The notes beneath the pieces are model-generated. The model worked only from the letters and a program-made list of their open reading frames with translations. It searched no databases and was not told the DNA's origin. Shown here piece after piece: positions 1 to 56,336 of a stretch of DNA of 64,000 bases. Position 1 is the stretch's first letter. Every line of letters begins with the position of its first letter. Source of the stretch: a virus (taxonomy: Duplodnaviria; Caudoviricetes); the IMG/VR virus record IMGVR_UViG_2721756095_000004, positions 1 through 64,000 of that record; one strand, 5' to 3'. Both the position numbers and the translations under genes were made by a program.

Positions 1-3000
1 TCACGAAATAGCGACAAATCTCGCCTCCGATGGCACGCCCTGGTTGTTCACGACAAAGAGCATGTAAAACCCCGGTGGGGCAATATTGCCATTGGCTGGG
101 GCGGCGGTTTCCAGGGTGGTTGCCGTGCGCGAGTTGATGGGCAGCTTGATGTAGCGCTGCCCCGCGTCGGTATGGTGCGTGACGGAAATGGGTGCAATCA
201 GCGCGACGCTGCCAATATTTGCTGCCTGCGGCGTTTCGACCGAGAAAGTAGTGCCATAGGTCACGCTGGGCGGTGCGGTCGAAATGATAGGACGTGCCCC
301 TAGGCTCAGGTAGCCGGGCGAATACAACTCCAGGGTGTGCTGATCGGGATCAGCCGTGCCGGGCGCGACTCCTCCGGCGGCAAGAATCCTGCCGTCAGGC
401 AGGAGAATACATACCGAATGATACTGGCGCGGGAAGTTCAGGGAAGCGCCGGGTGTCCATTCATCCGTATCCGGGTTGTAGGTTTCGACCGGAAGCACGG
501 GCGTGGGGGACCATTTTTGACCATTGCTGTGGCCGCCAATGATGAGTATCCGGCCGGTGGGTAGTACCACCGCGTTGACATTGGTTCGTCCGAAATTCAT
601 GTCGGCGATGCGCCGCCAGGACGATCCTCCCACGCCGCCGCTGAATTCGATCACTTCGGCGGTAGCATTGTTGCGCGCCGTGGCCGGGCCGGATACGCCG
701 CCGCCGAAGATGTACAGGCGGGTTCGCTCCGGTGAGGCAGTCGTGTCGATTGTGAGCAGGCTCATGCCCTCCTGCCGGTCGTAGAATTGCTCCTGCCCAT
801 AATCGGTCCAGCTGCCGCTAGTTGGCCCGCTCAAAGTCAGGTAAGCAGTTTGCGTTCCTGTCGCGCCCGCCCAGCCTGCGCGGGTGTAGAAGATTTCTCC
901 TGATGGCAACAGGTGTAGCCCGGGATAAAGCTCCTCAAAGGTCCGATCCACTCCTGTTACCGGCGCCCAGCTTGTGCCGTCGTAGACCTCGACTTCCGCC
1001 GCAATGGGATGGCCACCGGAAAAAGCCAACACGCGTCCATCGCTCAGGCTGACCGCCGTCGGGTACCAGCGGGCATGAGCCATGCTGGCCGTGGCCGAGA
1101 ATGCACCGGCATCCGGATTGGTCGTGTCCGGCGTGAAGATGAAGCAGCGGTTATTGGTGTGCCCCGCGCCGTTGGTATCGCCGCCTACCACCAGCAGGCG
1201 GCCGTCCGGCAGGAATATGTGGCCGGAACAGAAAAAATCTTCCGGAAGGGTAATGACACTCGGCATGATCTGTCTCGTTGTCGGGTCCCAGATGCGGCCT
1301 TCCAGGGGATAGTTTCTTTCCGCCGCTCCGGAAAAGAGCAGTACGTGGCCGGTATGCAGCAGCGCGCCATGAACCGTGAAGATGGGTGAGGGGTCAAGCA
1401 GTTCCCAGGAGTCCTCGCCATCGGCCCCGCAAGGGTGATGACCCACCTCGGGGCATTCGTGCATGCGCACATTGGGCAGCTGATAGCAGATCCGCTTCAC
1501 CTCATCCTCGCTCAACTCCACTTCCTGGATGGCGCGCAATATCGCCGCCATGCCTTCCATCATGTGCATCTCGACGTGGCAGTGAATCAGGAAATCGCCC
1601 TGCAACTGGTATCTTTTGCATTCTCTCTGCCGATCCGGATAAGCGCTGTCGCATTCCCCGGAATGCTCATGCGAATGTTCGTGCTGGCCTCCGGAATGGG
1701 GAGATGGGTCGGATGCCTCCGATTCGAAACGGGAAGGGTGGGCATGGGTGTGTGCCCCGGCTCCTGCCGCATTCGCAGCACCGAGACGAGCCGGTTGGGC
1801 ACGGCCTCCCTGCTGATTCCCCTCTTCTTCCGCGCCATGCTCGGGTTCATGGCCGGGCCCGTTCTGGCCATTCTCACGCGGCTTGCAGCAGCAATCCAGT
1901 GGAAGGGGTTCGAGAATGACGCGCGGCACGATCGTGTCTGCGACGAAGGATTCAGCAGGGCCGAGCGAGCGAGTGTCAACCCACTCCGTCCCCCAACGCC
2001 AGCGCTGCCCGTGCAGATGGAAATTGTGCCATACCATGCTCATGTCCAGGTTGAACACATACCAGCGTATGCGCTTGCCAGACTCGGCGACGATTGTGGG
2101 TGTATTCCCCACGAAGGTGCGGCCGTTGATGGCATAGGACTCCAGCCCCGCTCCCGCACGCTCGGTCACGGTATGCGGTTGGTTGCCTGCATGGTTCCAG
2201 GTGACCTCCGCCCCTACTCCCACCGTAACGTCATCCAGTTCAAAACGGGCGGGTGTGTCGAGGATATTGATGGTTGCTGTGAGGGGGCCTGTCGCCGTGA
2301 CACGCACTCGTCCCTGCATTGGATGAAAACGGCAGTAGTATTCAAACGTGCCTTCCTCATTAAAGGTGTGTGCAAAGGTATCGCCGGGGTTGAGGGTATC
2401 GCTGTCGAAGGCTGCTTCAGCAATATCGACATTCGCGGTAAGGCGATGGAAGAAAATGGGAACTTCGAGGTCCACCTTCTCGCAATGGGGATCACGGACG
2501 ATAATGCCGCCGAATAGCCCACGCTTGACGACCTCCTCGATATGCATATGGTGGTCGTGAAAAGGCCAGCAGCCAATCGTATCTTCCCTGGCATCGAAGA
2601 TATAGCACCACTGCTCACCGGGGCAAATGGCATCGCTGCGGTTGGGACCGTCATATTCCTGCACGCCAAAGGGCCACGATCCGTCCGAGTCGATGCCATA
2701 GTGCAGGCCATGGACGTGCAGGCTGTGCGGCTCGATGTCGCCGTTGAGCACATGCACGTAGAGCCTTTCGCCAGGCTGCGTGTAAATCACCGTTCCCGGA
2801 ATGCGCCGCTCCACCCGCGGCTCATTGGTATCGGCGGCAATGAGCGGATCGTCCTTGAGTATGGTATAGGCTCCATCGAGGTATTCCCGGTAGACCAGGG
2901 CGTTGAGCGTGCGCCGATCCACCTCTGCCTGGGGAATGGTGGCATCCTCATGCCCCATGTTCCTCATGCAGTCGAGACGGTGCTTGTGATGTTCCGCATC

Positions 3001-3066
3001 GTCTGGCGCGACCGGGCTGTAATTGGGTATTTCCTCGATTTTTACGTATATGTGTCGCGTTTGCAT
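1..3066 (-). CDS. Multicopper oxidase (2-domain laccase type) + inserted cupredoxin + galactose oxidase-like kelch copper radical oxidase fusion
   Basis: MCO motifs HSLHVHG, WPFHDH, HNFHLHG, HCHVEMHMMEGM; blue-copper loop YYCRFHPM; AA5 motifs FCSGH, RWYPT, RQYHS, VTHH and a C-terminal PPGFYMLFVV (DUF1929-like) domain. Confidence 0.85.
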   Translation of the reverse strand: MQTRHIYVKIEEIPNYSPVAPDDAEHHKHRLDCMRNMGHEDATIPQAEVDRRTLNALVYREYLDGAYTILKDDPLIAADTNEPRVERRIPGTVIYTQPGERLYVHVLNGDIEPHSLHVHGLHYGIDSDGSWPFGVQEYDGPNRSDAICPGEQWCYIFDAREDTIGCWPFHDHHMHIEEVVKRGLFGGIIVRDPHCEKVDLEVPIFFHRLTANVDIAEAAFDSDTLNPGDTFAHTFNEEGTFEYYCRFHPMQGRVRVTATGPLTATINILDTPARFELDDVTVGVGAEVTWNHAGNQPHTVTERAGAGLESYAINGRTFVGNTPTIVAESGKRIRWYVFNLDMSMVWHNFHLHGQRWRWGTEWVDTRSLGPAESFVADTIVPRVILEPLPLDCCCKPRENGQNGPGHEPEHGAEEEGNQQGGRAQPARLGAANAAGAGAHTHAHPSRFESEASDPSPHSGGQHEHSHEHSGECDSAYPDRQRECKRYQLQGDFLIHCHVEMHMMEGMAAILRAIQEVELSEDEVKRICYQLPNVRMHECPEVGHHPCGADGEDSWELLDPSPIFTVHGALLHTGHVLLFSGAAERNYPLEGRIWDPTTRQIMPSVITLPEDFFCSGHIFLPDGRLLVVGGDTNGAGHTNNRCFIFTPDTTNPDAGAFSATASMAHARWYPTAVSLSDGRVLAFSGGHPIAAEVEVYDGTSWAPVTGVDRTFEELYPGLHLLPSGEIFYTRAGWAGATGTQTAYLTLSGPTSGSWTDYGQEQFYDRQEGMSLLTIDTTASPERTRLYIFGGGVSGPATARNNATAEVIEFSGGVGGSSWRRIADMNFGRTNVNAVVLPTGRILIIGGHSNGQKWSPTPVLPVETYNPDTDEWTPGASLNFPRQYHSVCILLPDGRILAAGGVAPGTADPDQHTLELYSPGYLSLGARPIISTAPPSVTYGTTFSVETPQAANIGSVALIAPISVTHHTDAGQRYIKLPINSRTATTLETAAPANGNIAPPGFYMLFVVNNQGVPSEARFVAIS

Positions 3067-3252
3067 GGTCCCTGTCTCCTGTTCGTTCGACCATAACCTG
3101 ATGCTTCATGATTAAAAATAGCGGGAATTCAAGGGAATGCAAGGAGAAACAATTCAAGTGAGAAATAGCAGGAACAGGGGATGGGAAATTTTCGCGAACG
3201 CGAAATCAATTTTTTTACTTAAGTCTTCCCCTTAGCCCCTTAGCCGGCGGCC

Positions 3253-3687
3253 ATGAAGGCCGGCAATCTCGAACGAGTCGTCCGCCTCTATACGCAATCG
3301 CTCAATCGGGCGACCGACAACTATCGCTCGTTCATCGCGGCTTGGTCATCGCTGGAGATCCTAGTCGGCAAGATCTTTCCTGTCTACCACCAGCTTCTCG
3401 CAGCGGAACTGCAGAAGGTGAGCCAAGCCCCCGGCCTCCACGCGTACCTTGACCGCATCATGTTAGTGATGGGAGGAAAGCACAATCTAGCAGACAAGTT
3501 CTCGGTAATTTCGATGTTTCTCGATGACGAGCGTAACCCCGAAGAGATAAAGACCTTTCGTAAGCTGAAAAACGTTCGTGATCACTTGTCCCATGGCAAA
3601 GAGCTGCCCGAAGATAGTTTGCCCACGACAGAGGTGCAGAGATTATTTGACAAGTACCTCCGGAATCATTTGCGTCATGGCGCGTAA
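3253..3687 (+). CDS. HEPN-like domain protein, probably an N-terminally truncated remnant
   Basis: 144 aa; AWSSLEIL helix and Rx4H motif RDHLSH typical of HEPN/ApeA-like C-terminal domains; no clear RBS. Confidence 0.45.
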   Translation: MKAGNLERVVRLYTQSLNRATDNYRSFIAAWSSLEILVGKIFPVYHQLLAAELQKVSQAPGLHAYLDRIMLVMGGKHNLADKFSVISMFLDDERNPEEIKTFRKLKNVRDHLSHGKELPEDSLPTTEVQRLFDKYLRNHLRHGA

Positions 3688-3800
3688 GGGCTTTTATCGA
3701 GCGGGCTCGGCAGAAGTCTTGAGCAGTAGCCAATCTTGACCTTCAACCTTTTTTTTGCCAGAGGTAGCTGCAATGTTTTCTGACTTAGTGCCCCTTCAGT

Positions 3801-3988: not shown

Positions 3989-4741
3989 TTACATTCGTCG
4001 CCCAGCCCATACCACCCTTCCCACTACGTTCAGCGTGGAGGCCCTCGATGAGTCCAGTACCTCATCTGAGTACTGCTTGTTGTCGTTCATAACCACCATT
4101 GTGTCATCCAGTTTTCGGTGAATACGCTTGCAACGCAAGTCGCCGTTGTGCGCCAGCACATAAACTGCATCATTTTCAACCCGCCCACTATGTGTATCAA
4201 CCAGAACCATATCGCCGCTCGATAGCGTGGGTATCATGTTGTCGCCCTTTACGCTAATTAATGCCAGGTCTCGGGGCGCCACACCCAGGTTGTGTTTAAC
4301 CCAATCTGCCTTGAATGCCCAGTGGTCCAGGATCTGATCAGAATGAACAGCAGGACCACCGCCGGCGCGCGCGTGTAGGTCATGTCGCGGCACCTGGACA
4401 AACTCTTCCAGGTGGGGATGTTTGAAATCATCGGCTCGGCGACCATAACGAACGCGAGACCCATCCTTCTCATCACGCACTATCGGCGCGTTACCAGGCG
4501 CTTTTTCTGGAGCTTTTTCAGTAAGTTTATCAATAACTTGTTTCGGTACTAAAAAGAATTTAACCCCTTCCTTTGCACCCTTTCCAGGCCGGTTAATTTG
4601 GGGCCACCCTTCCCGAGCCGCCGTTTTATAAATTCCAGCCCGTGTCGTCGGTAGTCCAGGAACCTTTAGCTCCGCAAGCTTTGTTGCGGAGTAATACGTT
4701 CCCTCCTTGCTCACAATCATCCCTCGCTCGCTTTCCATCAT
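3989..4741 (-). CDS. Prophage repressor: Mu-type DNA-binding domain + S24 peptidase-like domain (start uncertain, 4720-4783)
   Basis: N-term YSATKLAELKVPGLPTTRAGI..AAREGW resembles the N-terminus of the transposase in this window; C-term VKGDNMIPTL..GDMVLVD..KRI..VVGRVVW; divergent from ner. Confidence 0.88.
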   Translation of the reverse strand: MMESERGMIVSKEGTYYSATKLAELKVPGLPTTRAGIYKTAAREGWPQINRPGKGAKEGVKFFLVPKQVIDKLTEKAPEKAPGNAPIVRDEKDGSRVRYGRRADDFKHPHLEEFVQVPRHDLHARAGGGPAVHSDQILDHWAFKADWVKHNLGVAPRDLALISVKGDNMIPTLSSGDMVLVDTHSGRVENDAVYVLAHNGDLRCKRIHRKLDDTMVVMNDNKQYSDEVLDSSRASTLNVVGRVVWAGRRM

Positions 4742-4773
4742 ATCTCCACGCCGATCTTTTTCGCTTTCGCTCA

Positions 4774-4898
4774 TAACTGTCACCTAACTGTTACCAACTG
4801 TAAAATAAAAAGACGTACCTTTATTTGAGTATTTACTTCGTAAAAACAATAGCTTAGACAAATTCATGGCTGCACTAACTGTCACCATAACTGTTACC
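4774..4898. promoter_or_regulatory. Repressor operators / transposition enhancer with an intervening IHF site
   Basis: TAACTGTYACC at 4774, 4785, 4876, 4888; IHF-like AAACAAtagcTTA at 4844-4856, matching the Mu O1-IHF-O2 layout. Confidence 0.75.
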
Positions 4899-5319: not shown

Positions 5320-5747
5320 TGCGCAAGCGCGACATCATTACCCAGGATATGTTCACGGTCCCTCAGCCAGCTCCCCGCTCGGCCGGGAGCTTAGCCTGCA
5401 GGGTAGAGATCGCGCACACCATGAGCGAAGCTCTGGACGGACACGACCGCTACGAAGTTTCTGCCACCATGAGCCGGTTGCTCGGCCGCGACATCAGCAA
5501 GCACATGCTGGACGCCTATACCGCTGAATCGCGGGAAGACCACATTCCACCCCTGGATACCGCCATTGCCTTCGACATGGCGACCAGCGACATATCACTA
5601 CTCAATCTCTACGCATCCAAACTCGGCGCGCGAGTATCCGTTGGTAAGGACGCCTTAAATGCGGAGCTTGGCAAGCTCGAAAACATGCGCGACGAAGTGG
5701 TCAAGCAAATTAAGCGCCTTAAAAAGGTAATGGGAGAGCGGCCGTGA
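5319..5747 (+). CDS. Mu-like phage early hypothetical protein
   Basis: 142-aa ORF translationally coupled between ner and transposase. Confidence 0.75.
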   Translation: MRKRDIITQDMFTVPQPAPRSAGSLACRVEIAHTMSEALDGHDRYEVSATMSRLLGRDISKHMLDAYTAESREDHIPPLDTAIAFDMATSDISLLNLYASKLGARVSVGKDALNAELGKLENMRDEVVKQIKRLKKVMGERP

Positions 5748-7837
5748 GCGCGCTCAAAAGCCATTACTCATGTGCCGAATTGGCAGCAATGAGGTTGACC
5801 GGATTCCCTTCCACCAAAAAAGGTTGGATCGAGTTGGTGTCACGTCAAAAATGGCAGAAACAAGAGCGCGTGGGACGTGGCGGCGGATTTGAATACCAAG
5901 TACCTTCAAAGGTGCTCACGCGAATAAAAGAAGAGGCTGTGCAGGCTCTGGTTAAAGCCGTGCCAATCGATCAGCTGCAGCCGGATACTGATGTAGCGCA
6001 GTTAGAAAGTGTTAAACCTGCCGAGTTGAAGGACTGGCAGCGGAAGACTGCCCAGGCCCGGGCTGCAATTTGCGCCGAAGTGCGCCGTCTGGCCGAGGTC
6101 GGCGGCACGGAGCGAGCCATTCGTTCTGTGCTCGATCTGGCCGCACGCGGCAGCCTGGCGCCGCATTTGCAGCGCCTCGTACCCATTGCCAACGCGAAAG
6201 CCGGAACAGACCGCGCATTGTCACGCGGCACCCTTTATCGCTGGCTTAACGATGCCCAAGGAGGTTGGGCGGAGCTTGCCCCGAAATCCCGCGAATCTAT
6301 CGAAGTGCCCGTCTGGGCACCCTATCTCTTGAAGCTGTACCAGCAGCCACAAAAGCCAAGCCTCGCTTACTGCATAGAACAGCTCCCTTCAATACTTCCA
6401 TCTGCAATCACGCCGCCCTCCTACCACGCCGCCAATCGGTTTCTGAAAAAGATGAGCAAGGTGGACGTGCAGCGCGGGCGCATGGGAAGTCGTGAAATTA
6501 AATCCATTCGGCCGTTTGTGCGACGCGACACAGCTCAAATGTGGCCAACTGATGCATATACCGCAGATGGTCACACCTTCGATGGAGAGGTGGCTCATCC
6601 GGCTCATGGTAAGGCGTTTCGTCCTGAAATCACGACAGTGATAGACATCGCCACACGTCGTGCGGTTGGCTGGTCGGCCGGGTTGGCAGAATCCACTTGG
6701 GCAGTACTGGATGCCCTACGCCATGCTTGCGAAACAGGCGGTATTCCCTCCATTTTCTATGTCGATAACGGTTCTGGTTATCGCAATGCTGCCATGTCCG
6801 ACGCCGCAACCGGTTTCATGGAACGGTTGAGCATCACGCTTACCCATAGTCTCCCTTACAACTCCCAGGCTCGAGGTGTTATCGAGCGCGCGCATCAGAC
6901 AATCTGGGTACGCGGCGCAAAATCTTTGCCGACCTACATGGGCGCGGCAATGGATCGCCAGGCGAAACAGGCTGCTTACAAGATCACTCGTGCTGACATC
7001 AAAACCAGCGGCACCTCCAGACTACTCATGGGCTGGAACGACTTCACCAGTTGGTGCCAGCAGCAGGTCGATGACTATAACGGCCGGCCGCACCGGGCCC
7101 TACTAAAGGTGCGTGACGAAGGCGGCAAGCTGCGCCATCAGACACCTAACGAAGCCTGGGCGCAAGCAATAGCGGAAGGCTGGAAGTCCGTACCAGTTTT
7201 GGCGCATGAGGCCGAGGATCTCTTCCGCCCCTACAAGGAAGCCAAGGTCAGCCGAGCAGAAATACGCATGTTCGGCAACCTTTACTTCCACCAGGATCTG
7301 GACCCCTACCACGGCGAGATGGTCCGCGTCGGATACGACATCCACGACGCCAGCCGGGTGTGGGTCCGTGACCAGGAAGGCCGCATGATCTGTGTGGCTG
7401 AGTTCGAAGCCAACAAGCGCAATTACTTTCCGACGTCTTTCCTGGAACAAGCCGCCCAGAAACGAGCAGAAGGCCGCATCAAACGTGCGCAGGTCAAGAT
7501 CGAGGAAGCTGAGGCCGAACTCAACCCACCCCAGATGCTGGAATACCAGCCTGCAGTTGAGTTGGCTCCGATGCGAATTGAATACCCCAGAGAGGAGCAG
7601 GAAAGGCAGTCGGATAAGCCAGGCGTGGAAGTCGCCGAAACCGCTGTAGCCAGCGTCGTCAACCTGCCTAAGCGTCGCCCTATGTTCAGTACCGATGCAG
7701 CTAAATACCGCTGGCTGATGACCAACGCCGAACAGATTAACGCAACAGATGAAGGATGGCTGGACTGGTATCGGTCCACCCCCGAATGGGAAGACATCTT
7801 TTCGGGAACGGAAGATGAAGAGGTGACCGTACGGTAG
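5744..7837 (+). CDS. MuA-like DDE transposase
   Basis: YTADGH, YVDNGSG, ARGVIER catalytic motifs; N-terminal Mu DNA-binding domain; VGYDIHDAS.VWV C-terminal domain. Confidence 0.95.
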   Translation: MSALKSHYSCAELAAMRLTGFPSTKKGWIELVSRQKWQKQERVGRGGGFEYQVPSKVLTRIKEEAVQALVKAVPIDQLQPDTDVAQLESVKPAELKDWQRKTAQARAAICAEVRRLAEVGGTERAIRSVLDLAARGSLAPHLQRLVPIANAKAGTDRALSRGTLYRWLNDAQGGWAELAPKSRESIEVPVWAPYLLKLYQQPQKPSLAYCIEQLPSILPSAITPPSYHAANRFLKKMSKVDVQRGRMGSREIKSIRPFVRRDTAQMWPTDAYTADGHTFDGEVAHPAHGKAFRPEITTVIDIATRRAVGWSAGLAESTWAVLDALRHACETGGIPSIFYVDNGSGYRNAAMSDAATGFMERLSITLTHSLPYNSQARGVIERAHQTIWVRGAKSLPTYMGAAMDRQAKQAAYKITRADIKTSGTSRLLMGWNDFTSWCQQQVDDYNGRPHRALLKVRDEGGKLRHQTPNEAWAQAIAEGWKSVPVLAHEAEDLFRPYKEAKVSRAEIRMFGNLYFHQDLDPYHGEMVRVGYDIHDASRVWVRDQEGRMICVAEFEANKRNYFPTSFLEQAAQKRAEGRIKRAQVKIEEAEAELNPPQMLEYQPAVELAPMRIEYPREEQERQSDKPGVEVAETAVASVVNLPKRRPMFSTDAAKYRWLMTNAEQINATDEGWLDWYRSTPEWEDIFSGTEDEEVTVR

Positions 7838-7861
7838 TTGCAGCTACCGCACGGTCTTTTT
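7825..7861 (+). terminator. Hairpin + T-tract between A and B
   Basis: GACCGTACGGTAG-TTGCAG-CTACCGCACGGTC-TTTTT overlapping the transposase stop codon. Confidence 0.55.
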
Positions 7862-7892
7862 GACGCACTACAGCAAAAAGGAGTGTAGCACA

Positions 7893-8630
7893 GTGAAAAA
7901 TGTGTTTGTAAAAACCAGCAATTATGAGCGGTTCCGCACTGGCATTACAGCGGTCGAGGATCGTGGCGCAGCCGAGGCCAGCCTTATGCTGGTCACCGGC
8001 GAGGCCGGGTATGGAAAGAGCGAAACGGTTGACCATTGGGCTATACAGAGCGGCGCCGCATATCTGCGCGCTAAGGTGGAATGGACTCCCCGTTACTTCA
8101 TGACGGAACTGGCGGAGCATCTAAAGATCGATTCGCGCGGTCGTGCTAAGGATATCTTTGCGCGCATCTCCGGTTACATCGGCGTGCAGCAGACCCCGCT
8201 TGTGATCGACGAGGTCGAGCATTGTCTGCGTGACAACGCTCAGGTGCTGGAAGCGATCCGTGACCTTTCCGACCTGACTGAGGTGCTGGTCATTTTGGTC
8301 GGCATGGAGCAGGTCCAGGCAAAGATTGCGCGCCATGCCCAGATAAGCAGCCGTATTGCAAAAGTTGTGGAGTTCCAGCCTTCCACCATTGACGATGTGG
8401 CGCTTGCATGCCGGCAGTTGGCAGAGGTGGAAATCCTTCCGGAATTGATTGCCGAGATCCACAGGCAAAGCACTGGCCGCATGCGTGAAATCATGAATGC
8501 GATCGCAATTTGCGAGCGTACTGCGAAGCGCAACGGCATCGCCAAAATTGGCCTGCAGGAAATGGCCGGCCAAACCCTTACCCACGACTGGCAAGCACGC
8601 CGCCCCCGTGTCGTAAAGGCGGTGCGGTGA
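7893..8630 (+). CDS. MuB-like AAA+ transposition ATPase
   Basis: Walker A GEAGYGKS, Walker B LVIDE, ILVGM; AGGAG RBS before GTG 7893. Confidence 0.93.
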   Translation: MKNVFVKTSNYERFRTGITAVEDRGAAEASLMLVTGEAGYGKSETVDHWAIQSGAAYLRAKVEWTPRYFMTELAEHLKIDSRGRAKDIFARISGYIGVQQTPLVIDEVEHCLRDNAQVLEAIRDLSDLTEVLVILVGMEQVQAKIARHAQISSRIAKVVEFQPSTIDDVALACRQLAEVEILPELIAEIHRQSTGRMREIMNAIAICERTAKRNGIAKIGLQEMAGQTLTHDWQARRPRVVKAVR

Positions 8631-40800: not shown

Positions 40801-41562
40801 ATGCACAACCCTATTATTCCGTGGATCGGCGGTAAACGCCGCCTGGCAAACAAGATCATGCCGCTTTTCCCAGCCCATGAATGCTATGTCGAACCGTTTG
40901 CCGGCGCGGCCGCGTTGTATTTCCGGAAGGCGCCGGCACAGGTCGAAGTGCTCAACGACATCAATGGCGAGTTGGTGAATTTATACCGAGTGGTCAAGCA
41001 TCATATGGAAGAGCTTGCCAAGCAATTCAAGTGGGCGTTAACCAGCAGACAAATATTCAAGTGGCTGCAGGCAACACCAGAGGAAACGCTGACCGATATC
41101 CAACGTGCGGCCAAGTTCTATTACCTGCAAAAACTGGCATTCGGCGGCCGAGTGGAAGGCCAGACCTTTGGCACAGCCACTACCTCACCGCCCAGACTTA
41201 ACTTGCTACGGCTTGAGGAGGATCTGAGCCAGGCTCACCTGCGCTTGGCCAGAACCTACATCGAACATCTGGATTGGCAGGAATGCATCAGCAAGTACGA
41301 CCGGCCGCACACTCTTTTTTATCTCGATCCGCCGTACTGGGGGACCGAGGGATATGGCGTCGGGTTCGGTCTGGAGCAATATGATGAGATGGCGAAACTG
41401 GCCAAGACGATAAAGGGAAACATGATCATCAGCGTCAACGATATCCCTGAGATGCGAAACGCCTTCGCTGGACTGACGATGGAGTCAGTCGATATCAACT
41501 ACACGGTCGGTGGAGCGCAGAGGTGCGGGAAGCGTGCCGAGCTGATCATCAGGAGTTGGTGA
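40801..41562 (+). CDS. DNA adenine methyltransferase (D12/Dam class) at the mom position
   Basis: PWIGGK, YVEPFAG, LNDIN, FYLDPPY. Confidence 0.93.
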   Translation: MHNPIIPWIGGKRRLANKIMPLFPAHECYVEPFAGAAALYFRKAPAQVEVLNDINGELVNLYRVVKHHMEELAKQFKWALTSRQIFKWLQATPEETLTDIQRAAKFYYLQKLAFGGRVEGQTFGTATTSPPRLNLLRLEEDLSQAHLRLARTYIEHLDWQECISKYDRPHTLFYLDPPYWGTEGYGVGFGLEQYDEMAKLAKTIKGNMIISVNDIPEMRNAFAGLTMESVDINYTVGGAQRCGKRAELIIRSW

Positions 41563-42021: not shown

Positions 42022-42171
42022 ATGCTGACATTCTTAGCCGCCCTTCTCGGTATCGCCATGGTCCTTGTCATGACCCCGGCCCTTATCGGCGCGATTCTGA
42101 AACACAGTGACGCGCTCCCAATTGTCGGGATCATGTTTGCGGCAATAATAATCTTCGGCGTTATCTGGTAG
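42022..42171 (+). CDS. Small 2-TM membrane protein, possible superinfection exclusion
   Basis: 49 aa, highly hydrophobic; TGCTATACT extended -10 at 41975-41983; convergent with the ejection genes. Confidence 0.45.
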   Translation: MLTFLAALLGIAMVLVMTPALIGAILKHSDALPIVGIMFAAIIIFGVIW

Positions 42172-45100
42172 CCTCGACATAGCGCTTATTGAAGTCGGAC
42201 ATTAGCACCCTTTTCCGCTCCGCCAGTTCTTTCAATTTTTCCCGCTTATCATCCGGATTCGATTTCTCGATCGCGCGTTCACGTTTCCGCATGTTTTCCA
42301 GAATGTTCGATACGAACTTTGCCCGACCGGAGAGTTTAAGTTCCCCATATTCATCACGCAGCGCAGCCCGCTTTTCTGGATCGCCGCGGAAGTTCTTTAA
42401 CTCCTCTTCCGCCAGGTTCACGCTTTTGAGGTTCTGGTAGAACTTGCGCTCAGTCTGGTATTCCGGTTTCGCGCTCAGAAAGATATTAGCGAACGGAACT
42501 TCCTTTGCCTGAATCTCTTCATCCTGGGCGGCTTTTATCGGCAGGCTGAATGCTTGCAGATAAGTGCGCCCAGCGCCGCCGGCAAGCGATGAAACCGCAA
42601 AGTCCAATAGCGCGGGGTTGGTATCTATGAATCCAGGCCGAACCTCATTCCCCCCCGTTGCATCGTTCAGAAACTCAGTCAGCCATTTAGCCGGCGCGCT
42701 GGTTGATTTAAACCCCATTTGATATTCAGGCTTCGGCACACCAAAGGGCGATTGCTCGCGCCTCATCGGATTGCCAGCGAAGTTCTTGTTTTCGCCCCAC
42801 TGCACAAGAGGATCGCCGATGGTCGGCGCAATTAATTGTGTTACTGAACCTGCCTGCCCTACCGGGCTGAACGCATCGAAGAATACGGCTGCGAGCTCAA
42901 CCGCGCTATTTGCAGGACTATAGTTCTCCCTGAACATACCCTCGCTCATCTTCCGGCCAACCGAGGCAAAGAAGTTGTAACCGTAAGGCATGGGAACAGT
43001 TACCGGCCTGCTGCCCGCCATAAAGACAAAGTTCATGGCTTTTGTATGTTCGGGCAATTGGTCGTAATCGTTCTCACCATCGTCGTCATCGTCACCCGCC
43101 ATTGAACGAGCAAGAATATCCATAAGGAAGCCGGAAGCGACTATGCCGCCCACGATCTTCTGAACTTGCTTATTGCCCAATGCTTGGATGAGCCTTGCCG
43201 TGCCCTGAATGGATGCGTTCATGAACATGTACCACATATTCAGTTCCGTGCTCTTGGCGCCCTTCAGATTAAAGTTAACCGTGAGCCCCTTGGCAACTGA
43301 GCTGCTTTTACCCTCCGATAACCCGCGCTTGCGCGCATTCACGTAAACCGCCAGGCGGATTCCATTCTCGACGGCACTATTCGCGTCTTCGATCAATTCC
43401 CACCAGTCCTTCGCAAGCCGCCGGGTAAAATTCCACTTGCCCGGCCCCATGACCTCAAGTTGATTCCTGAGCTTATCTGCCCGCTCGCCAATGTCCCGGT
43501 AGTTGTCCATCCAGCCAACTTGCCCGCCGGAATCCCTGAATTCCCGGGCATCTTTCGCCCACTGAGAATTCATGTTGCCGCGGGTTAATTGCCACATGCC
43601 CCGGATAGCCTTTGGCACATCCGCAAATACCTGTCTTTTCATCCCCGCAAGTTCGGTATCTGACAAATTGACATAAGCCGTCTGCAGGTCGCGTAAGAAG
43701 TTACGAGCAACAAACACCGGGTTTGCCGTGGTATTCATCGTTGCCAGAAAGCGCGTGAATTTACCGACTGCCTGAGTCACTTCCCCGAGTTGCTGAGTGC
43801 TCAGATTCTTGATGGATGAGGCAAGCCGCATTGCTGCCGGATTCTGTTTATTGAATTCGATGGTATGCTCTTCGCCGTCGATCTTGAACGTCAACACTTC
43901 ATCGCGCTGCTTATACAAGGGATCAACACGCTCGACTACAAGTCCTGTTACCGGATCCATTTCGCGCTTGGTATCCTGATCATCCACCTTCCACAGCTCC
44001 GGATCCGGGTGCGCCATAACGAATTCAAATAAAGCATTGTCCACTCTGGATTTCTCGGCCCGAATAATTGCAGTTTCATGCTGCGCAACCACATGAGCGA
44101 GAATGTCCGTTACCGCCCTATTCGATCCGGTAGCCCGCTTGCTTTCCTTGCCTCGGATATTAAAGCCCCGGCCTACAGGCGGATTCGTGTTTCCACCAAC
44201 TTCATCGCGATGTAAAGGAACATAGTGATCGTACTTCGCCTCCCATGCGGCGATCATCTCGGGAGTCTCCAAACCGGCATCCACGATCACTTTTCTGGTT
44301 GCAGTAGTTATCTCATCAACCATGGATGAAGCGCGCTGCAGGGCCTCTAATTTGCCCGTTTCCTTGACTTTCTGGATTACTGCTTTTGCCGCGGCGTCAC
44401 TCATTCCAGACAATGCCGTATTGTCGCCATCGAACGGTTTCATATTTTGCAACCGCTTCAATTGCTCAATTGACTGCACGTAATCCTGAACGGCTTTTTT
44501 CTTCCGCAGCTCAGATACTTCTCTATCCAACAGAATCTCGTCGGTGGGATCGACAAGACCATCCTCAACGTCAGATTGCGCCTGTCTCAACTCGCGCCGC
44601 TTCTGGATGAACTCGACAACATTTTTATCCTTGGCCAGCCTGTCACGAGTCGCCGCAAGTTTCTTGATGCGCTCATCCAACTCCTGAACGGTCGGGTTGA
44701 TGTCCTTCATGGCCGCATTGCGGGATGGAGCGTGCATCGCGTGCAGGAACTCTTCAACCTCCTCATATTTCAGATTACCGTCATGGATAGCCTGAATAAG
44801 CGGATCACGCATATCATCATGGAAGTCATCGGTGCGCGCGCGAACACGGCCAGGATAGTTAATCTCAGCAAGCGATGCGTCCATATCCTCATTCACCGGC
44901 CCCGCTTCTTTCTGAATATCCCGAAGATCCATGAACCGATCCTGGAAGTTGAATATCAGAGAGTCAACGATACGGCTGGTTCTGGAGGGGCCGGATGAGG
45001 CGTTATTGTCGGGCCGGGATGGTTTGCGGCTGAACATCGTTCCGCTCGACGCTTCCCTATAAGCCTCAGCCTGCTTGTCATCAAACAGCGATACCTCGTT

Positions 45101-48100
45101 CTCCGCCATTCCAACAACTTCCGCCCCAGCCACCAACTGTTCAACCATCTCATCAGTAAAGGTGAGATTAAATCTCTCCGCGATCCATTGCTTGATGAAG
45201 CGCACGAGTTTCTTCCAGCCGTTAAGCGCCTTTGCCCGGTCAATCGACATATCGGCAAGAACTTCCTCGACGGCCGTTTCCTTGGACATGTCTTTGTGCA
45301 ATCGCATCATCCGGTCCGCGGCATCGCGTACACGCTTATTCGTCGCGTAGATTTGCCGCATGATCGGATCAATACCGGGACCAAACATCTTCCTAAACCC
45401 ACGGTGACGCGCCTCATGCATTGTCACCAGGAAAACCTCGAACGCATCATTCAGTTGGTCGGCGACGAGCCATATTTCGTCTGGGGCAGGAATGTAAACG
45501 CCACGCACACCCCCTGCATTTTGAGACTTGATCTGCTCCTTAACGGCTTTCGGCAAGTCGCTTTGGGTGGCGGCAATATTGATCTTCTTGAACCCGGCTT
45601 GTTGCAGGGGCTCAATGAGTTTCTCGACGCCGGAAACAGAAAGGCCACCGCGATGGGTGGCCTGTTTGGATTTGGTGGATGCTGCTTTTAGGCGCTTACG
45701 GGTTTCGGCGATTCTTTCACGGTTGAATTTAATGCCTTCATCTGCTATATTAGAATTACTTTGGCCGCGAGCGATGGGGTCGTCCTGACTGGAACTTGCT
45801 TCAGGATTGGCAGCGTATGCGGGCTGTTTTCCAGTGACAGCGAGTGTGGGTTCGCTCCCACTCCAAAGCACCTTCATCCCTTTCTGTAGTTGCTTCTCAA
45901 GATAATCTCGGCTGGTTGGAAACGCCGTGTTTATCCGGTAATAGTCTCCGTTCTCGCTCGGCTCAAGCTGCACAAACATCACATCTTTCCGGCCATTCTC
46001 TACAGCAACAAGTAGCTGACGGCCGCTAGCATGAAGAATTTCATTGAAGTTCTTCGCTACATGCGCGACAAAAGATTCAACTGATTCAAACCCGGCGTTC
46101 CTAATCTGTTTTCCATGGTTGGCCTCTATATGCACGAGGCCATGCCCTGAGCCATCAGGCTTGTGTACCCCATGCGCGAGGCGAATGGGCGCGGCCTGGC
46201 GCTTAATCTTGCTCCCCACTTCCTTGTTTATATGACCAAAGTCAATCCCGCCGTCTGGGGTCTCTACAAAATCCGCCGGTTGTGGCGCGCGACTGAATTT
46301 TGGCGCATCAGTAGTTGATTCCTTCGCCTTCACCGCCTCCGCAATCTGCCGCAAAATCTTCGCCGCTTCAGCATCAGCCTTCTCGAACGCCTTGGCTTGC
46401 AGGCTGAAATACCTTCCCTCTACTTTCGCATCCGTGCGCTTGCCTTCCATCACTTCCTTGGCGCGTTCAATTGCTTTGGACAAGTCCTTGCCACCTTGTC
46501 TGGCAGCGGCCCGGCGCTTGATAAGGGATTCTACGTGTGAGCGGACGGGGTGGGCGGCTTGTGTCCCTGCGGATGCGCGCTCAACTACCGAATCCTTTTT
46601 GTTTGGAAGGGTGTTATGTACACGCGATCGCTCAACATTAGCCCAGCCGCCATCTTTATCCTTCGCGACCTTTCGAACGGTCACAGACCAATTGCCATCA
46701 TTCCAATCGAACGACTCTACCCGGTCATACGTCCCCCAGTAGTTGCTGCGGATGATACTGCCGGGACGAAAATGCTCCTCCAGTTCGGCGCGCAAACTGG
46801 ACTTCTTCGGTTTTGGCGTCTTCTTTGCAGGCTGGACGGCTTGCTTTCCCTCTGCTACGCTTTCATTCCCTGCGGGAGATTTCGCCTCGCGTGACTTGCT
46901 TTCGATTGAGGGCTTGGGCGCGGGGCGGGTCTCCCTGGCAGGACCAGATTGCGATATGGGATTCGTCGTACCGTTCGTAACTGACTGATCTATATTCGAT
47001 GTCGGAATCACGACATCGGCCTGAGTTTTAACTCCCTCGAATTCGGGGGAATTAGCTGCCCGCTCCGCCATCGCCTCTGCAACCGGCCTGACCTCAACAG
47101 TTCCATTCTCCCCCGCCACAGCAGCCGCAGCCCGTTCAACTCCCGGCCTTCCATCGGTCGCCACGTCCTGAATAACCGTTCCGTTCGCATCCCGCGCAGT
47201 GACAACCTGATCCGTTTCCGGCTTCTCATCAATCCCATACCCCAGCGCCTCGCCCATGCGATTATCGAGCGCAGCTTGCAGGGTAGCGTCATCGCGATAT
47301 AGAAGAGTTCCCCGGCCCGGTATCTCTGCGGCCTGTACGCCTTCCGGTAGAGTGTCAGGCATAGGCTCGCCGGGAGTCAGCAACACGCCAGGCTTACGGC
47401 CTTCAGCAAGCGCGTCCATTTGCGCGTTGAGCGTTTCAATGCGCTCGGGAGTTGGCGCGTCAACCATATTCCCGACGTCAGGAACATGGTCAGGCTCTTC
47501 ATCGAAAACATCATCCTGAATCGCATCAGGAGCCGCCTGCTGGCTTTGCCGAATCTCGTCAGCCTTATCCTTGCCCGTAGAAATAATGCGGTCTACGGCC
47601 TCAGAAGTGGACTCAGGGGCGTTCGCAATTTCAGGATCAATGCCTTCCGTTGCCCGGCGGCTCAATTCAGCCTGTGCCGCAGCTTTTGCACGCTCTCCGC
47701 CACGGGCAGCGGTGTATTTCAGGACGGAATTGGAAACTTCTGTTATTGGTTTGCCGAGAATGGTTGCTGTGTGATCAGCATCTTCTTGTGCCGGGTTTCC
47801 GCGGAATACTGCGCCAGTTCCGCCGCCCATTACCCCGCCGCCAATAGCGCCCATGGCGCCGCCGAACAGCGTTTCATCTATATTCTCTGGCGTGGTCGGA
47901 TTGTCAAATGCAGCAAGTTGCTCGACTGGATTCTGAACTAGCTCTTCCGTGCCTTCCGCCATCATGCCTTTGCCGATGCCCTTGCCGATCGATCCTTTCA
48001 GGGTAGTGGCCGCAAACTTCTCGGCCAACTTCGCCCTACCCTCTTTCGTCATCGCGGCAAGCGCCCAATTCTGCGGACCAAAGCGGGATTCGATAGCGCC

Positions 48101-48997
48101 CACGGTTGCGGCACCAAGCGCGGCAACAGCCTTCGCTTTCGCGGAATCCTGATTATTCGGATCGCTCAGAATCTGCTTGTCACGAATACCGCCGAAGGAA
48201 GGTAGCGCGGCAATAGCGGCAGGCCCGAGCCATGACACAACCTGCCCGGCGGCGGCAACCAGCGGCGCAGCGGGACCGGCCAATGGGGATAATGCGGTAA
48301 TGCCCTGGCCTACTGCTCGGGCTCCAACAATACCGGCCATGGATGAGGCTGCGTTGCCCGAAGCTTCAGCCACGGCGGTACCGGGCTTGTCGGCAATATC
48401 ATCAAGGCTATTTACCGCCGTGGGATTGGCGTCGATGATTCCCTGCCCTGCACGTTTAAGAGCATTGTCTTGATCGACTCCGGGGATGAAGTCGGCGGCG
48501 ACTTGACCGGCGCCCTTGATGCCGGCGCCAGCGGCGCGCGCAGCCGATGCAACAAATCCGCCTTCCTCTTCCGGTTCTGTGTTGGCCAATGCGCCTGCTA
48601 CAGCCTGTTTATTGCCTTGCGCCTTTGTATCATTCGCGGCCGCATTGCGAGTTCGCGCAACAATCCCTGTATCCGGTTCGCTCGATCCTTGCGGCGTTTC
48701 GGAAGCCATCCGATTGTAGAAGTCCCGGCGTACCGGAGCGCCTTTGACTTGAGGCGCGGCAAGTCCAGCGGTTTCAGCAGACCGTTCCTCTGCTTGCTCC
48801 GCAATACTCTTCTTGGGCGCGAACATGGAGAGGCCGGCGTCGATGGCGCTCGATACAGCAGACTTGCCCTTCACCATCAGCGAAGCGTCAGGATTAAGGT
48901 GCGCTTCATTCTTCTGGATAGCGGCGGCGATGTCCGCATCGGACATATCGGCAGGGAATTCCAGCACGTTACCCCAGGCTTCTACACGTTGAACCAT
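42161..48997 (-). CDS. Large polyvalent ejection/internal virion protein (PBECR-like nuclease, zincin, LPD38-like C-terminus)
   Basis: 2278 aa; GHGLVHI...H..YYRINTAFP, HEARH, YVPLHR, NP.F..RNF.RD, VNF..KG, Y.F.NA.IQG, P.PYG. Confidence 0.82.
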   Translation of the reverse strand: MVQRVEAWGNVLEFPADMSDADIAAAIQKNEAHLNPDASLMVKGKSAVSSAIDAGLSMFAPKKSIAEQAEERSAETAGLAAPQVKGAPVRRDFYNRMASETPQGSSEPDTGIVARTRNAAANDTKAQGNKQAVAGALANTEPEEEGGFVASAARAAGAGIKGAGQVAADFIPGVDQDNALKRAGQGIIDANPTAVNSLDDIADKPGTAVAEASGNAASSMAGIVGARAVGQGITALSPLAGPAAPLVAAAGQVVSWLGPAAIAALPSFGGIRDKQILSDPNNQDSAKAKAVAALGAATVGAIESRFGPQNWALAAMTKEGRAKLAEKFAATTLKGSIGKGIGKGMMAEGTEELVQNPVEQLAAFDNPTTPENIDETLFGGAMGAIGGGVMGGGTGAVFRGNPAQEDADHTATILGKPITEVSNSVLKYTAARGGERAKAAAQAELSRRATEGIDPEIANAPESTSEAVDRIISTGKDKADEIRQSQQAAPDAIQDDVFDEEPDHVPDVGNMVDAPTPERIETLNAQMDALAEGRKPGVLLTPGEPMPDTLPEGVQAAEIPGRGTLLYRDDATLQAALDNRMGEALGYGIDEKPETDQVVTARDANGTVIQDVATDGRPGVERAAAAVAGENGTVEVRPVAEAMAERAANSPEFEGVKTQADVVIPTSNIDQSVTNGTTNPISQSGPARETRPAPKPSIESKSREAKSPAGNESVAEGKQAVQPAKKTPKPKKSSLRAELEEHFRPGSIIRSNYWGTYDRVESFDWNDGNWSVTVRKVAKDKDGGWANVERSRVHNTLPNKKDSVVERASAGTQAAHPVRSHVESLIKRRAAARQGGKDLSKAIERAKEVMEGKRTDAKVEGRYFSLQAKAFEKADAEAAKILRQIAEAVKAKESTTDAPKFSRAPQPADFVETPDGGIDFGHINKEVGSKIKRQAAPIRLAHGVHKPDGSGHGLVHIEANHGKQIRNAGFESVESFVAHVAKNFNEILHASGRQLLVAVENGRKDVMFVQLEPSENGDYYRINTAFPTSRDYLEKQLQKGMKVLWSGSEPTLAVTGKQPAYAANPEASSSQDDPIARGQSNSNIADEGIKFNRERIAETRKRLKAASTKSKQATHRGGLSVSGVEKLIEPLQQAGFKKINIAATQSDLPKAVKEQIKSQNAGGVRGVYIPAPDEIWLVADQLNDAFEVFLVTMHEARHRGFRKMFGPGIDPIMRQIYATNKRVRDAADRMMRLHKDMSKETAVEEVLADMSIDRAKALNGWKKLVRFIKQWIAERFNLTFTDEMVEQLVAGAEVVGMAENEVSLFDDKQAEAYREASSGTMFSRKPSRPDNNASSGPSRTSRIVDSLIFNFQDRFMDLRDIQKEAGPVNEDMDASLAEINYPGRVRARTDDFHDDMRDPLIQAIHDGNLKYEEVEEFLHAMHAPSRNAAMKDINPTVQELDERIKKLAATRDRLAKDKNVVEFIQKRRELRQAQSDVEDGLVDPTDEILLDREVSELRKKKAVQDYVQSIEQLKRLQNMKPFDGDNTALSGMSDAAAKAVIQKVKETGKLEALQRASSMVDEITTATRKVIVDAGLETPEMIAAWEAKYDHYVPLHRDEVGGNTNPPVGRGFNIRGKESKRATGSNRAVTDILAHVVAQHETAIIRAEKSRVDNALFEFVMAHPDPELWKVDDQDTKREMDPVTGLVVERVDPLYKQRDEVLTFKIDGEEHTIEFNKQNPAAMRLASSIKNLSTQQLGEVTQAVGKFTRFLATMNTTANPVFVARNFLRDLQTAYVNLSDTELAGMKRQVFADVPKAIRGMWQLTRGNMNSQWAKDAREFRDSGGQVGWMDNYRDIGERADKLRNQLEVMGPGKWNFTRRLAKDWWELIEDANSAVENGIRLAVYVNARKRGLSEGKSSSVAKGLTVNFNLKGAKSTELNMWYMFMNASIQGTARLIQALGNKQVQKIVGGIVASGFLMDILARSMAGDDDDDGENDYDQLPEHTKAMNFVFMAGSRPVTVPMPYGYNFFASVGRKMSEGMFRENYSPANSAVELAAVFFDAFSPVGQAGSVTQLIAPTIGDPLVQWGENKNFAGNPMRREQSPFGVPKPEYQMGFKSTSAPAKWLTEFLNDATGGNEVRPGFIDTNPALLDFAVSSLAGGAGRTYLQAFSLPIKAAQDEEIQAKEVPFANIFLSAKPEYQTERKFYQNLKSVNLAEEELKNFRGDPEKRAALRDEYGELKLSGRAKFVSNILENMRKRERAIEKSNPDDKREKLKELAERKRVLMSDFNKRYVEATR

Positions 48998-52077: not shown

Positions 52078-52121
52078 TCGGCTCTCCTTGCGATAACATA
52101 TTGTAACATAATAGTAATTCC

Positions 52122-54478: not shown

Positions 54479-54540
54479 GGCAACTCCTCGCAAACTATAG
54501 TATTATTCGTATTTCCATTATCGATGAATGAGCCACGCAT

Positions 54541-56281: not shown

Positions 56282-56287
56282 TTCTCC

Positions 56288-56314: not shown

Positions 56315-56336
56315 AGTTTCTTTTAAATCAATGTAA

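Follow-up and report, generated by a model that had tools for sequence, protein, structure and literature searches.

Copper radical oxidases (CROs) lapse into an inactive, non-radical state from which ferricyanide, horseradish peroxidase (HRP) or natural tandem peroxidases reactivate them, and in the systems covered by the accessible part of a review (enzymes with a partner peroxidase in Colletotrichum and Magnaporthe; galactose oxidase and glyoxal oxidase supplied with HRP or ferricyanide) the CRO is thus paired with a one-electron oxidant (PMC11611005). The words multicopper and cupredoxin are absent from the accessible text of that review. Another set of copper and quinone enzymes is known from bacterial lodA operons, where, in the available portion of the published account, the operons termed "group ID" also hold tyrosinase and multicopper oxidase (MCO) genes and a functional relationship was suggested (Campillo-Brocal et al. 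2015, PMC4417212); shared regulation of tyrosinase, laccase and LodA in Marinomonas mediterranea is described in the accessible part of another report (PMC2855505). Here, we analyzed a gene at the very start of a 64,000-nucleotide stretch of DNA (IMG/VR virus record IMGVR_UViG_2721756095_000004, positions 1 to 64,000; this whole stretch is called the window) and found that it encodes one intact single-chain protein composed of a two-domain MCO, a circularly permuted cupredoxin and a CRO resembling GlxA of Streptomyces lividans. Whereas the known partners, as given in the accessible text of the CRO review, are separate haem peroxidases that use H2O2, the partner here would be a covalently fused copper oxidase that uses O2.

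The fusion gene is a complete open reading frame (ORF) that runs from an ATG at 3066-3064 to a TGA stop at 3-1, so that the window starts exactly at the stop codon. The stop-to-stop frame around it measures only 1034 aa, leaving no space for a missed N-terminal extension. Its parts, with the evidence for each, are as follows.

1..3066, minus strand: MCO-cupredoxin-CRO fusion gene, one complete ORF of 1021 aa.
3075..3080, minus strand: Shine-Dalgarno-like AGGAGA, 8 nt before the ATG, read directly.
2482..3066, minus strand: MCO domain 1, ceruloplasmin-like, residues 1-195 (Pfam Cu-oxidase_3; match to ceruloplasmin domain 1).
2422..2481, minus strand: connecting strand with H207, residues 196-215 (low predicted local distance difference test score, pLDDT, when the segment is folded alone).
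2161..2421, minus strand: permuted amicyanin-like type-1 copper domain, residues about 216-302 (swapped amicyanin matches).
1492..2160, minus strand: MCO domain 2, residues 303-525 (Pfam Cu-oxidase_2).
1618..1914, minus strand: disordered insertion in domain 2, rich in Glu, Gly, Ala, Pro and His, residues 385-483 (pLDDT <50 for 390-480).
1417..1491, minus strand: inter-module linker with a CPxxxxxxC pair, C538/C546, residues 526-550 (Cys conservation).
295..1416, minus strand: CRO kelch propeller, residues 551-924 (Pfam Glyoxal_oxid_N and Kelch; GlxA alignment).
1..294, minus strand: CRO C-terminal E-set (DUF1929) with ligand H964, residues 925-1021, including the stop at 3-1 (PF09118, E 2.4e-26).

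Pfam families cover both halves of the protein, with Cu-oxidase_3 at 85-193, a partial Copper-bind match at 224-256 and Cu-oxidase_2 from 307 onwards, followed by Glyoxal_oxid_N at 594-726, Kelch repeats and a galactose-oxidase-like E-set at 925-1020. A preliminary description of this DNA, made from its letters, had named a two-domain MCO with quoted motifs and a kelch domain with all galactose-oxidase ligands in one ORF. Every one of the MCO motifs is found in the translation (HSLHVH at 114-119, HDH at 170-172, HNFHLH at 347-352 and HCHVEMHMMEGM at 495-506), as are those of the CRO (FCSG with C613, RWYP with Y668, YHS at 882-884 and THH at 963-965), and C613, Y668, Y882/H883 and H964 align on the corresponding residues of GlxA. 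On this basis the protein would hold six copper ions per chain in four kinds of copper site. An AlphaFold2 (AF2) model of the whole protein, built from alignment A1 (described below), has a mean pLDDT of 79.2 and a predicted template modelling score (pTM) of 0.53.

To place the gene in a family, we used protein-level and genome-level searches. The 120 best matches listed by a word-indexed protein search are nearly all 930-1210 aa long, contain both MCO and CRO Pfam families and are 49-89% identical to the query, and an exhaustive search against 50%-identity representatives returned more full-length fusions at 38-52% identity together with many stand-alone CROs and some MCO-only proteins. Their database names are generic ("galactose oxidase-like domain-containing protein", "plastocyanin", "FtsP/CotA-like multicopper oxidase"). 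From 163 collected proteins of at least 900 aa, those matching both the N-terminal MCO and the C-terminal end of the CRO make up a set of 117 fused proteins, and conservation was counted in a MAFFT alignment of this set (a 29-sequence alignment, A1, gives the same picture). The genome-level search, with one genome per species, yielded 178 stretches encoding relatives; locus counts in this work cover 79 listed loci, 62 of which are full-length (the match begins no later than residue 7 and reaches at least residue 1018). Record titles include Nitrosospira, Nitrosovibrio, Nitrosomonas, Methylococcaceae, Anaeromyxobacter and Variovorax, as well as Acidobacteriota, Flavobacteriaceae, Gemmatimonas, Verrucomicrobiales, Planctomycetes, Phycisphaerae, Nitrospinota, Actinomycetes, Nocardia, Actinoplanes and Arthrobacter; a full-length copy with 97% identity is that of Nitrosospira briensis Nsp8. 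The preliminary description had allowed for an assembly chimera, an objection that these 117 fused homologues, 178 stretches and 62 full-length loci refute. We conclude that the family is large, bacterial and devoid of signal peptides, that it is under selection and not a chimera, and that it is frequent among bacteria of soil and sediment, with ammonia oxidisers and methanotrophs among them.

Sequence comparison with Protein Data Bank (PDB) entries matched the N-terminal part to ceruloplasmin domain 1 and to two-domain laccases, ceruloplasmin being the closest likeness of the N-terminal motif and of domain 1. The fold of domain 1 begins at residue 2-3 (AF2 strands E2-17 to E185-190) and contributes H117, H119, H170 and H172 to the trinuclear cluster, each kept in 117/117 homologues, while domain 2 contributes the type-1 ligands H347, C496, H501 and M506 and the trinuclear histidines H350, H352, H495 and H497. 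When the MCO part of the AF2 model (residue 1 to about 540) was superposed on solved structures, it aligned with ceruloplasmin (Z 27.1; 307 aligned), the A domains of factor V/VIII (Z 25-26), the two-domain MCO 3gdc (Z 22.5; 247/288 residues aligned), two-domain laccases (Z 22.3; about 247/272-281 aligned; root-mean-square deviation (rmsd) 2.9-3.0; 28% identity) and the cores of NirK (Z 22.4-22.8). The superpositions on two-domain enzymes indicate that the two MCO domains are arranged like those in one subunit of the trimeric two-domain enzymes, in which the trinuclear cluster forms between subunits. Thus the mutual arrangement of the two cupredoxin domains is that of the two-domain MCOs (SLAC-type laccases 4uan, 5o3k and 7pen; 3gdc) and of ceruloplasmin and factor V/VIII, and the protein likewise shows four HxH pairs and, in its second domain, an H..C..H..M type-1 site, both of which are seen in two-domain MCOs and ceruloplasmin. 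By analogy with other two-domain MCOs, the fusion protein would probably be a trimer. It departs from them in having a permuted type-1 domain of ~100 residues inserted between the two domains and a disordered insertion of ~100 residues inside domain 2, in being joined to a CRO, and in having neither a twin-arginine (Tat) nor a general secretory (Sec) signal.

The preliminary description had also reported an extra type-1 copper domain. The domain is indeed present with its full ligand set, yet it is not an ordinary cupredoxin: residues 196-305, which lie between MCO domains 1 and 2, match amicyanin twice in swapped order (phmmer against PDB sequences). With a profile of 10 sequences (A2), positions 11-60 match amicyanin 55-105 (independent E-value 3.2e-9) and positions 69-104 match amicyanin 23-56 (independent E-value 8.1e-3), meaning that the C-terminal half (C245, H248, M250) comes first and the N-terminal half (H298) second. 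C245, H248 and M250 fall on the Cys-x2-His-x2-Met loop of amicyanin, which is one residue shorter here, and H298 falls on the His of its PHNV motif. The nearby H207 (His in 116/117) aligns three residues past the PHNV His and not on it, at a position that in amicyanin is presumably a non-ligand His.

Folded alone, the inserted segment gave a confident model (mean pLDDT 87.9; pTM 0.73; low only in the first 20 residues). Both structure searches ranked an engineered circularly permutated azurin, 5syd, first for the isolated domain: Foldseek at probability 1.00 and E 0.016 over 87 columns, and VIA-align at Z 5.5 and rmsd 2.6 Å over 79 aligned residues, the sole match with Z of at least 5 among 48,161 chains. 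Foldseek gave no match at E of 0.001 or below, and the 5syd match (E 0.016) is therefore used jointly with the VIA-align and sequence evidence; the domain does not follow the canonical strand order of cupredoxins, and no natural cupredoxin occurs among the listed structural matches. Since these modest structural scores combine with the swapped sequence matches, the conclusion that the extra domain is a circularly permuted, amicyanin-like cupredoxin is well supported. It shares the motifs of both amicyanin halves, including the His, Cys, His and Met ligands, but in comparison to amicyanin and plastocyanin its halves are swapped, with the break just after the ligand His, and it is not free but built into an MCO; 5syd is the best match for its fold and strand order, although the permutation of 5syd is engineered and that of the present domain is natural. 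A literature search on circular permutation and cupredoxins, with subscription journals mostly outside its reach, found no natural case.

By profile, the inserted domain matched best to 9cck_A, a chain of a nitrite reductase that has a cupredoxin at its C-terminus. Nitrite reductases to which a cupredoxin or cytochrome domain is tethered have, as here, a trimer-type core of two cupredoxin domains that carries its own electron-transfer domain, and the tethered domain acts as a built-in donor. Unlike the domain described here, the extra domain in tethered-cupredoxin nitrite reductases is terminal and of normal order, and the substrate is nitrite.

The closest solved relative of the C-terminal half is GlxA (PDB 4unm; E 3e-46), and FCSGH, ARWYPT, RQYHS and VTHHTD of the fusion protein align on FCTGH, ARWYPT, RNYHS and STHVTD of GlxA. 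By VIA-align, the CRO part superposes on 4unm with Z 46.1 (rmsd 2.6 Å; 456 aligned; 28% identity), on a bacterial galactose oxidase, 9g43, with Z 44.8, on galactose oxidase 1gof with Z 43.6, and also on fungal AA5 enzymes. The kelch propeller holds C613 (the partner in the Tyr-Cys link), W667, Y668, Y882 and H883, and the fold and active-site features of the AA5 group are thus in place, i.e., the Kelch and E-set fold, two Tyr and two His ligands, and the cross-link Cys with its stacking Trp; the Tyr-Cys cross-link itself is predicted from the alignment. The seven-bladed kelch propeller followed by an E-set is shared with GlxA and other AA5 enzymes (1gof; 9g43 of Pseudoarthrobacter; glyoxal oxidase 9n3u). 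However, about residues 109-243 of GlxA have no counterpart here (the matches are split between 25-108 and 244-614 of its chain), ~550 residues of MCO and cupredoxin precede the CRO, and the membrane anchor or signal peptide of GlxA is lacking. The protein scored 231.9 bits against the GlxA equivalog NF052501, below its cut-off of 800.

Conservation of the copper ligands among the 117 fused proteins was as follows.

Trinuclear cluster (H117, H119, H170, H172, H350, H352, H495, H497): 116-117/117.
MCO type-1 site (H347, C496, H501): 117/117.
MCO type-1 axial ligand (M506): Met in 111 and Leu in 6 of 117.
Extra type-1 site (C245, M250, H298): 117/117.
Extra type-1 site (H248): 115/117.
CRO ligands (Y668, Y882, H883, H964): 117/117.
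CRO cross-link Cys (C613): Cys in 112 and Ser in 5 of 117.

All five members with Ser at position 613 have also lost the stacking Trp (Phe or Tyr instead) and keep the four CRO ligands and the full MCO. These members (P0123, P0126, P0132, P0133 and P0138 in alignment A1) form a divergent clade with a long insertion before the permuted domain.

Outside the copper sites, two pairs of Cys are conserved and could be disulfides or metal sites: C538 and C546 of the linker (each Cys in 116/117) and C33 and C148 (113 and 114 of 117). The insertion in domain 2 corresponds to the ~100-aa His-rich loop of the preliminary description, which is confirmed (99 residues with 10 His, 13 Glu, 13 Gly, 12 Ala and 10 Pro). 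Its proposed role as a copper buffer fares poorly, given that the loop is not conserved, varying from 12 to 112 residues (median 59) and from 0 to 21 His across the 117 homologues. The absence of a signal peptide, noted from the start, extends to the whole family: in a screen for a 12-aa Kyte-Doolittle window of at least 2.0 in the first 45 aa and for a twin-arginine motif, a hydrophobic N-terminal stretch was present in 0/117 fused proteins, and a twin-arginine-like motif in one that lacks such a stretch. Of these homologues, 82/117 start no more than five residues from the MCO fold, and longer ones carry a transthyretin-like N-terminal domain instead. By this hydrophobicity and twin-arginine screen, the 117 homologues therefore lack the extracytoplasmic (secreted or anchored) trait of AA5 CROs.

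How might the two modules work together? The best explanation, to which we give roughly even weight against everything else, is an internal electron chain, in which electrons would pass from the CRO site to type-1 copper, on to the trinuclear cluster and finally to O2. The protein would trimerise, with trinuclear clusters forming between subunits; the CRO module would oxidise a small alcohol or hydrated aldehyde; and the MCO module would be the O2-reducing end, receiving single electrons by way of type-1 copper from the copper/Tyr-Cys site of the CRO, and the permuted cupredoxin would serve as a tethered relay between the modules. Two versions can be envisaged. As an activator, the MCO would regenerate the Cu(II)-radical state of the CRO after its decay; as an electron sink, it would carry the whole turnover, and O2 would be reduced to water instead of H2O2. 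Both roles had been raised in the preliminary description, and they are inseparable in silico. Coupling between the CRO and MCO modules is plausible because the four copper sites are conserved together (111-117/117), a type-1 domain is tethered to them, and CROs need an oxidant. The relay is favoured because the inserted domain resembles the electron carrier amicyanin and is strictly conserved, because a stand-alone paralogue of the MCO module (described below) has a terminal cupredoxin, which looks like a parallel solution, and because the nitrite reductase 9cck_A offers a precedent.

Several points weigh against the internal chain. The placement of the domains relative to one another in the AF2 model is uncertain (pTM 0.53), the electron transfer between the modules is something we infer, and the trimer is drawn by analogy. 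The loss of the cross-link Cys and of the stacking Trp in 5/117 fused homologues indicates that the radical cofactor is not obligatory for the family. Without an export signal, the protein would face the reducing, low-copper cytoplasm, which is unusual for MCOs and CROs. Finally, the tyrosinase (18/79) and LodA-like (8/79) neighbours of the gene in other genomes would fit a multi-enzyme pathway in which no electrons are exchanged.

That last point leads to the strongest competitor, which we consider a real but clearly less probable option: the modules are electronically independent, and MCO and CRO each use O2 in successive or parallel steps of one oxidative pathway that would include tyrosinase and, in some lineages, a LodA-type quinoprotein. 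Such a pathway could, for example, make a quinone/aldehyde pigment, cross-link matrix or secreted proteins, or serve as an antimicrobial H2O2 system, and fusion would then provide equal dosage and common localisation only. The neighbourhoods speak for it. By tblastn, tyrosinase was found in 18/79 loci (14/51 when only loci of at least 12 kb are counted), in records of Nitrosomonadaceae, Acidobacteriota, Methyloglobulus, Gemmatimonas and Bryobacteraceae, while a LodA-like quinoprotein was found in 8/79 and a LodB-like flavoprotein in 7/79, following the gene or fused to it. The LodA-like protein is a separate gene in loci L069, L071 and L074; in L046 (second copy), L080, L081, L083 and L089 a LodA-like part (LodA_N, LodA_C) is fused to the C-terminus, giving proteins of 1443-1497 aa. 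These triple fusions, of which one example lies at L081:3772-8121, have a gene for a LodB-like flavoprotein downstream. There are 15 protein clusters of the triple fusion, for which the NCBI name is only "LodA/GoxA family CTQ-dependent oxidase" (CTQ, cysteine tryptophylquinone). The fused domain matches the lysine 6-oxidase 2ymw (E 2.9e-39) and keeps the ...FFDC and ...WWP motifs, which we take to align with the LodA motifs that hold the CTQ-forming Cys and Trp. These residues of LodA are named as C516 and W581 in the accessible part of the published work (PMC4417212).

The loci L046, L069, L071, L074, L080, L081, L083 and L089 thus show the same association of LodA-like, LodB-like, tyrosinase and MCO functions as the lodA group ID operons, for which a functional relationship was suggested in the available text (PMC4417212); that text gives the MCO gene as pfam07731/07732 only and, as far as it is accessible, mentions neither a galactose-oxidase part nor an MCO-CRO-LodA fusion. 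The co-regulation of the three oxidases in Marinomonas, as stated in the accessible part of that report (PMC2855505), points the same way, and so do secreted Cys-rich and Kazal-domain proteins that flank the gene in Nitrosomonas-type loci. However, independent modules would leave unexplained both the inserted domain of electron-carrier type, conserved in 115-117/117, and the fixed order of the fusion across phyla. Moreover, the intact gene in the source genome adjoins none of these partners: unlike in the lodA group ID operons, lodA-like, lodB-like and tyrosinase genes are absent from the window and from 14 kb downstream.

Some further observations on these loci can be added. In the Nitrosomonas-type loci (L020, L023, L032, L036-L040, L060 and L064) the fusion gene lies within a same-strand cluster, where a Kazal-domain protein (150-182 aa) is encoded upstream, and a secreted Cys-rich protein of 260-288 aa, a protein of ~170 aa and a 492-aa tyrosinase are encoded downstream. 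A distant paralogue of the MCO module is encoded as a stand-alone protein in L069, L071 and L081; where scanned (L071 and L081), it is 627-674 aa long with a cupredoxin of normal order at the C-terminus, and the L071 copy is 24% identical to the fusion protein of the window. An MCO-LodA protein without CRO (P0298) was considered as support for the relay and rejected, its MCO being only 27% identical over domain 1 and without the permuted domain; this divergence indicates a separate event.

Copper handling, an improbable alternative in our estimate, would make the MCO, the His-rich loop and the linker Cys pair a cuprous oxidase or metallochaperone-like unit, which would supply Cu(II) or oxidising equivalents once, for loading of the CRO and formation of the Tyr-Cys link, and not for catalysis. 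The His-rich loop and the C538/C546 pair (116/117) are in keeping with this, as is the closeness of the MCO in sequence and fold to ceruloplasmin, a metal oxidase, and maturation of GlxA is known to need the help of a dedicated copper chaperone and a peroxidase. Yet the loop is short or absent in many members (minimum 12 residues, with 0 His), a four-copper oxidase and a second type-1 domain would be a heavy investment for a single maturation event, and members without the cross-link Cys retain the full MCO.

Less probable still is an external partner, where the permuted domain would pass electrons to the MCO from a separate redox protein, e.g., a CTQ quinoprotein of the LodA family, and the CRO would work on its own. 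Amicyanin, the best sequence match of the permuted domain, has a tryptophylquinone enzyme (methylamine dehydrogenase) as its natural donor, LodA-like domains with the Cys and Trp motifs of CTQ are fused behind MCO-CRO in other phyla, and the source genome has a lodA-like gene (C2:33826-35352). This gene, however, is ~975 kb away from the fusion gene, 71/79 loci have no LodA nearby, and the invariant fusion to a CRO would be left without a reason.

We next turn to the genomic setting. The fusion gene is apparently monocistronic. A 607-aa ORF converges on it and a 144-aa ORF diverges from it, and its GC content (59.8%) stands above that of the genome (53.3%) and of the flanks (42-50%). The following features lie on its upstream side.

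3989-41562: Mu-like prophage beside the fusion gene, from a CI-like repressor to a DNA methyltransferase.
3989-4783, minus strand: CI-like repressor of the Mu-like prophage.
5744-7837: transposase A of the prophage, which also has a Ner-like ORF.
7860-8630: transposition protein B of the prophage.
40801-41562: DNA methyltransferase at the prophage end.
42161-48997, minus strand: 2278-aa "large polyvalent protein" ORF with an LPD38 domain, beyond the prophage.

Later genes of the prophage encode terminase, portal, major head, tail sheath, tape measure and baseplate proteins. The LPD38 ORF is followed by large ORFs of 435, 391, 520 and 679 aa without a Pfam match, and the region 42161-58376 may be a second mobile element. 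The copy of the fusion gene in the window is thus located in an island of mobile DNA. The 144-aa ORF (3253-3687, plus strand; no Pfam match) is situated in a stretch of about 48-50% GC between the fusion gene and the prophage. On the other side, a low-GC stretch downstream of the fusion gene (L004:8178-13554, on G000:C2) encodes the 607-aa ORF, which has a hydrophobic N-terminal leader and no Pfam match, a CrtC-lipocalin-like protein of 341 aa and an FAD-binding oxidase of the BBE type (575 aa). These three were considered as partners and rejected, since they are not common to the compared loci of the fusion gene.

The usual neighbours of the gene in related Nitrosospira genomes are a tyrosinase, a 161-aa His-rich protein and a 245-269-aa protein without a Pfam match. 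When these and other usual neighbours (tyrosinase, 161-aa, 245-aa, GAF, ABC-2 membrane, ABC ATPase and others) were searched by tblastn, none was found in the window; the usual-neighbour locus of the source genome is at C2:326-334 kb, with the tyrosinase gene at C2:328864-329757. There, at C2:331299-331468, lies a frameshifted remnant of another copy of the fusion gene that comprises its last 58 codons (86% identity to residues 964-991 and 74% to 991-1021), flanked by the conserved 245-aa gene and by genes that border intact orthologues in other Nitrosospira genomes. The remnant at the usual tyrosinase locus indicates that the copy in the window is a second, relocated one.

Distribution within the group was followed in 121 genomes (the counts include G073, intact, and G081, a fragment, both flagged unpublished; no conclusion depends on these two by themselves). 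An uninterrupted full-length orthologue was found in one match in 13/121 genomes; two more have it in two same-frame matches, and one has it with a TAA. Copies decayed by stops or deletions occur in G030, G042, G046 and G084. A fused paralogue at 46-49% identity is present in 5/121 genomes (sites G018:C11, G049:C17, G079:C171, G091:C49 and G107:C41; 46-49% identity in the MCO and 39-41% in the CRO); this second form keeps conserved neighbours of its own, and G018 has both forms. That the gene in the window is an assembly chimera or a decaying pseudogene is, despite these decayed relatives and the 58-codon remnant in the source genome, a possibility we regard as negligible, considering its unbroken frame, good start and ribosome binding site, intact ligands, 97% identical full-length copy in another genome and architecture common to many phyla. 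The patchy distribution, together with the GC content, the prophage and the remnant, suggests an accessory, horizontally moved copy, and the fusion gene is accessory rather than part of core ammonia oxidation.

Four RNA libraries of soil or rhizosphere (three studies) contain contigs that match the fusion gene at 92-99% identity, which supports expression weakly, because such libraries can contain DNA. No contigs of these libraries cover 3101-3700, which says nothing about transcript ends, and their depth cannot rank expression. A scan for promoters and terminators gave counts no higher than in shuffled controls. There is a hairpin with a 16-bp stem about 300 nt past the stop codon, from which we draw no conclusion.

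A literature search for an MCO-cupredoxin-CRO fusion or for a galactose-oxidase-like protein of Nitrosospira, again mostly outside subscription journals, found none, and the concern of the preliminary description that the architecture might already be characterised is not borne out, as no characterising paper turned up. The domains are of known kinds, their combination is new, and the proteins are present in databases under generic names. CROs are valued as biocatalysts, with two practical weaknesses: a one-electron activator must be added, and H2O2 is released. If the modules are coupled, a natural single chain would answer both, and it would serve as a new model of how electrons travel over long distances between a protein radical and blue copper, as well as a test bed in which one protein contains six coppers of four types. 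The design may also reveal in which way bacteria connect two kinds of copper oxidase. Because permuted cupredoxins have been made by engineering, a natural one is likewise of interest to the study of protein evolution and to protein design.

Tentatively, and with considerably less confidence than in the internal chain, we propose a broader reading in which the MCO and the permuted domain form a portable, water-forming terminal-oxidase cassette for enzymes with radical or quinone cofactors. The cassette would receive its electrons one at a time from the Tyr-Cys copper site in the CRO, and in the triple fusions the CTQ of the LodA-like part would be a further source, mirroring the way in which free amicyanin serves methylamine dehydrogenase. 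Oxidases whose normal product from O2 is H2O2 would then make water instead, all within a single polypeptide. If this is true, the family would contain the first natural CRO acting as a dehydrogenase, and its blue-copper domain would be the first with a natural circular permutation and a defined role. According to the accessible text of the published analysis, what tyrosinase and LodA-type genes do together has been a standing question since 2015 or earlier (PMC4417212); the cassette, if real, would explain this long-noted association of tyrosinase, MCO and LodA genes.

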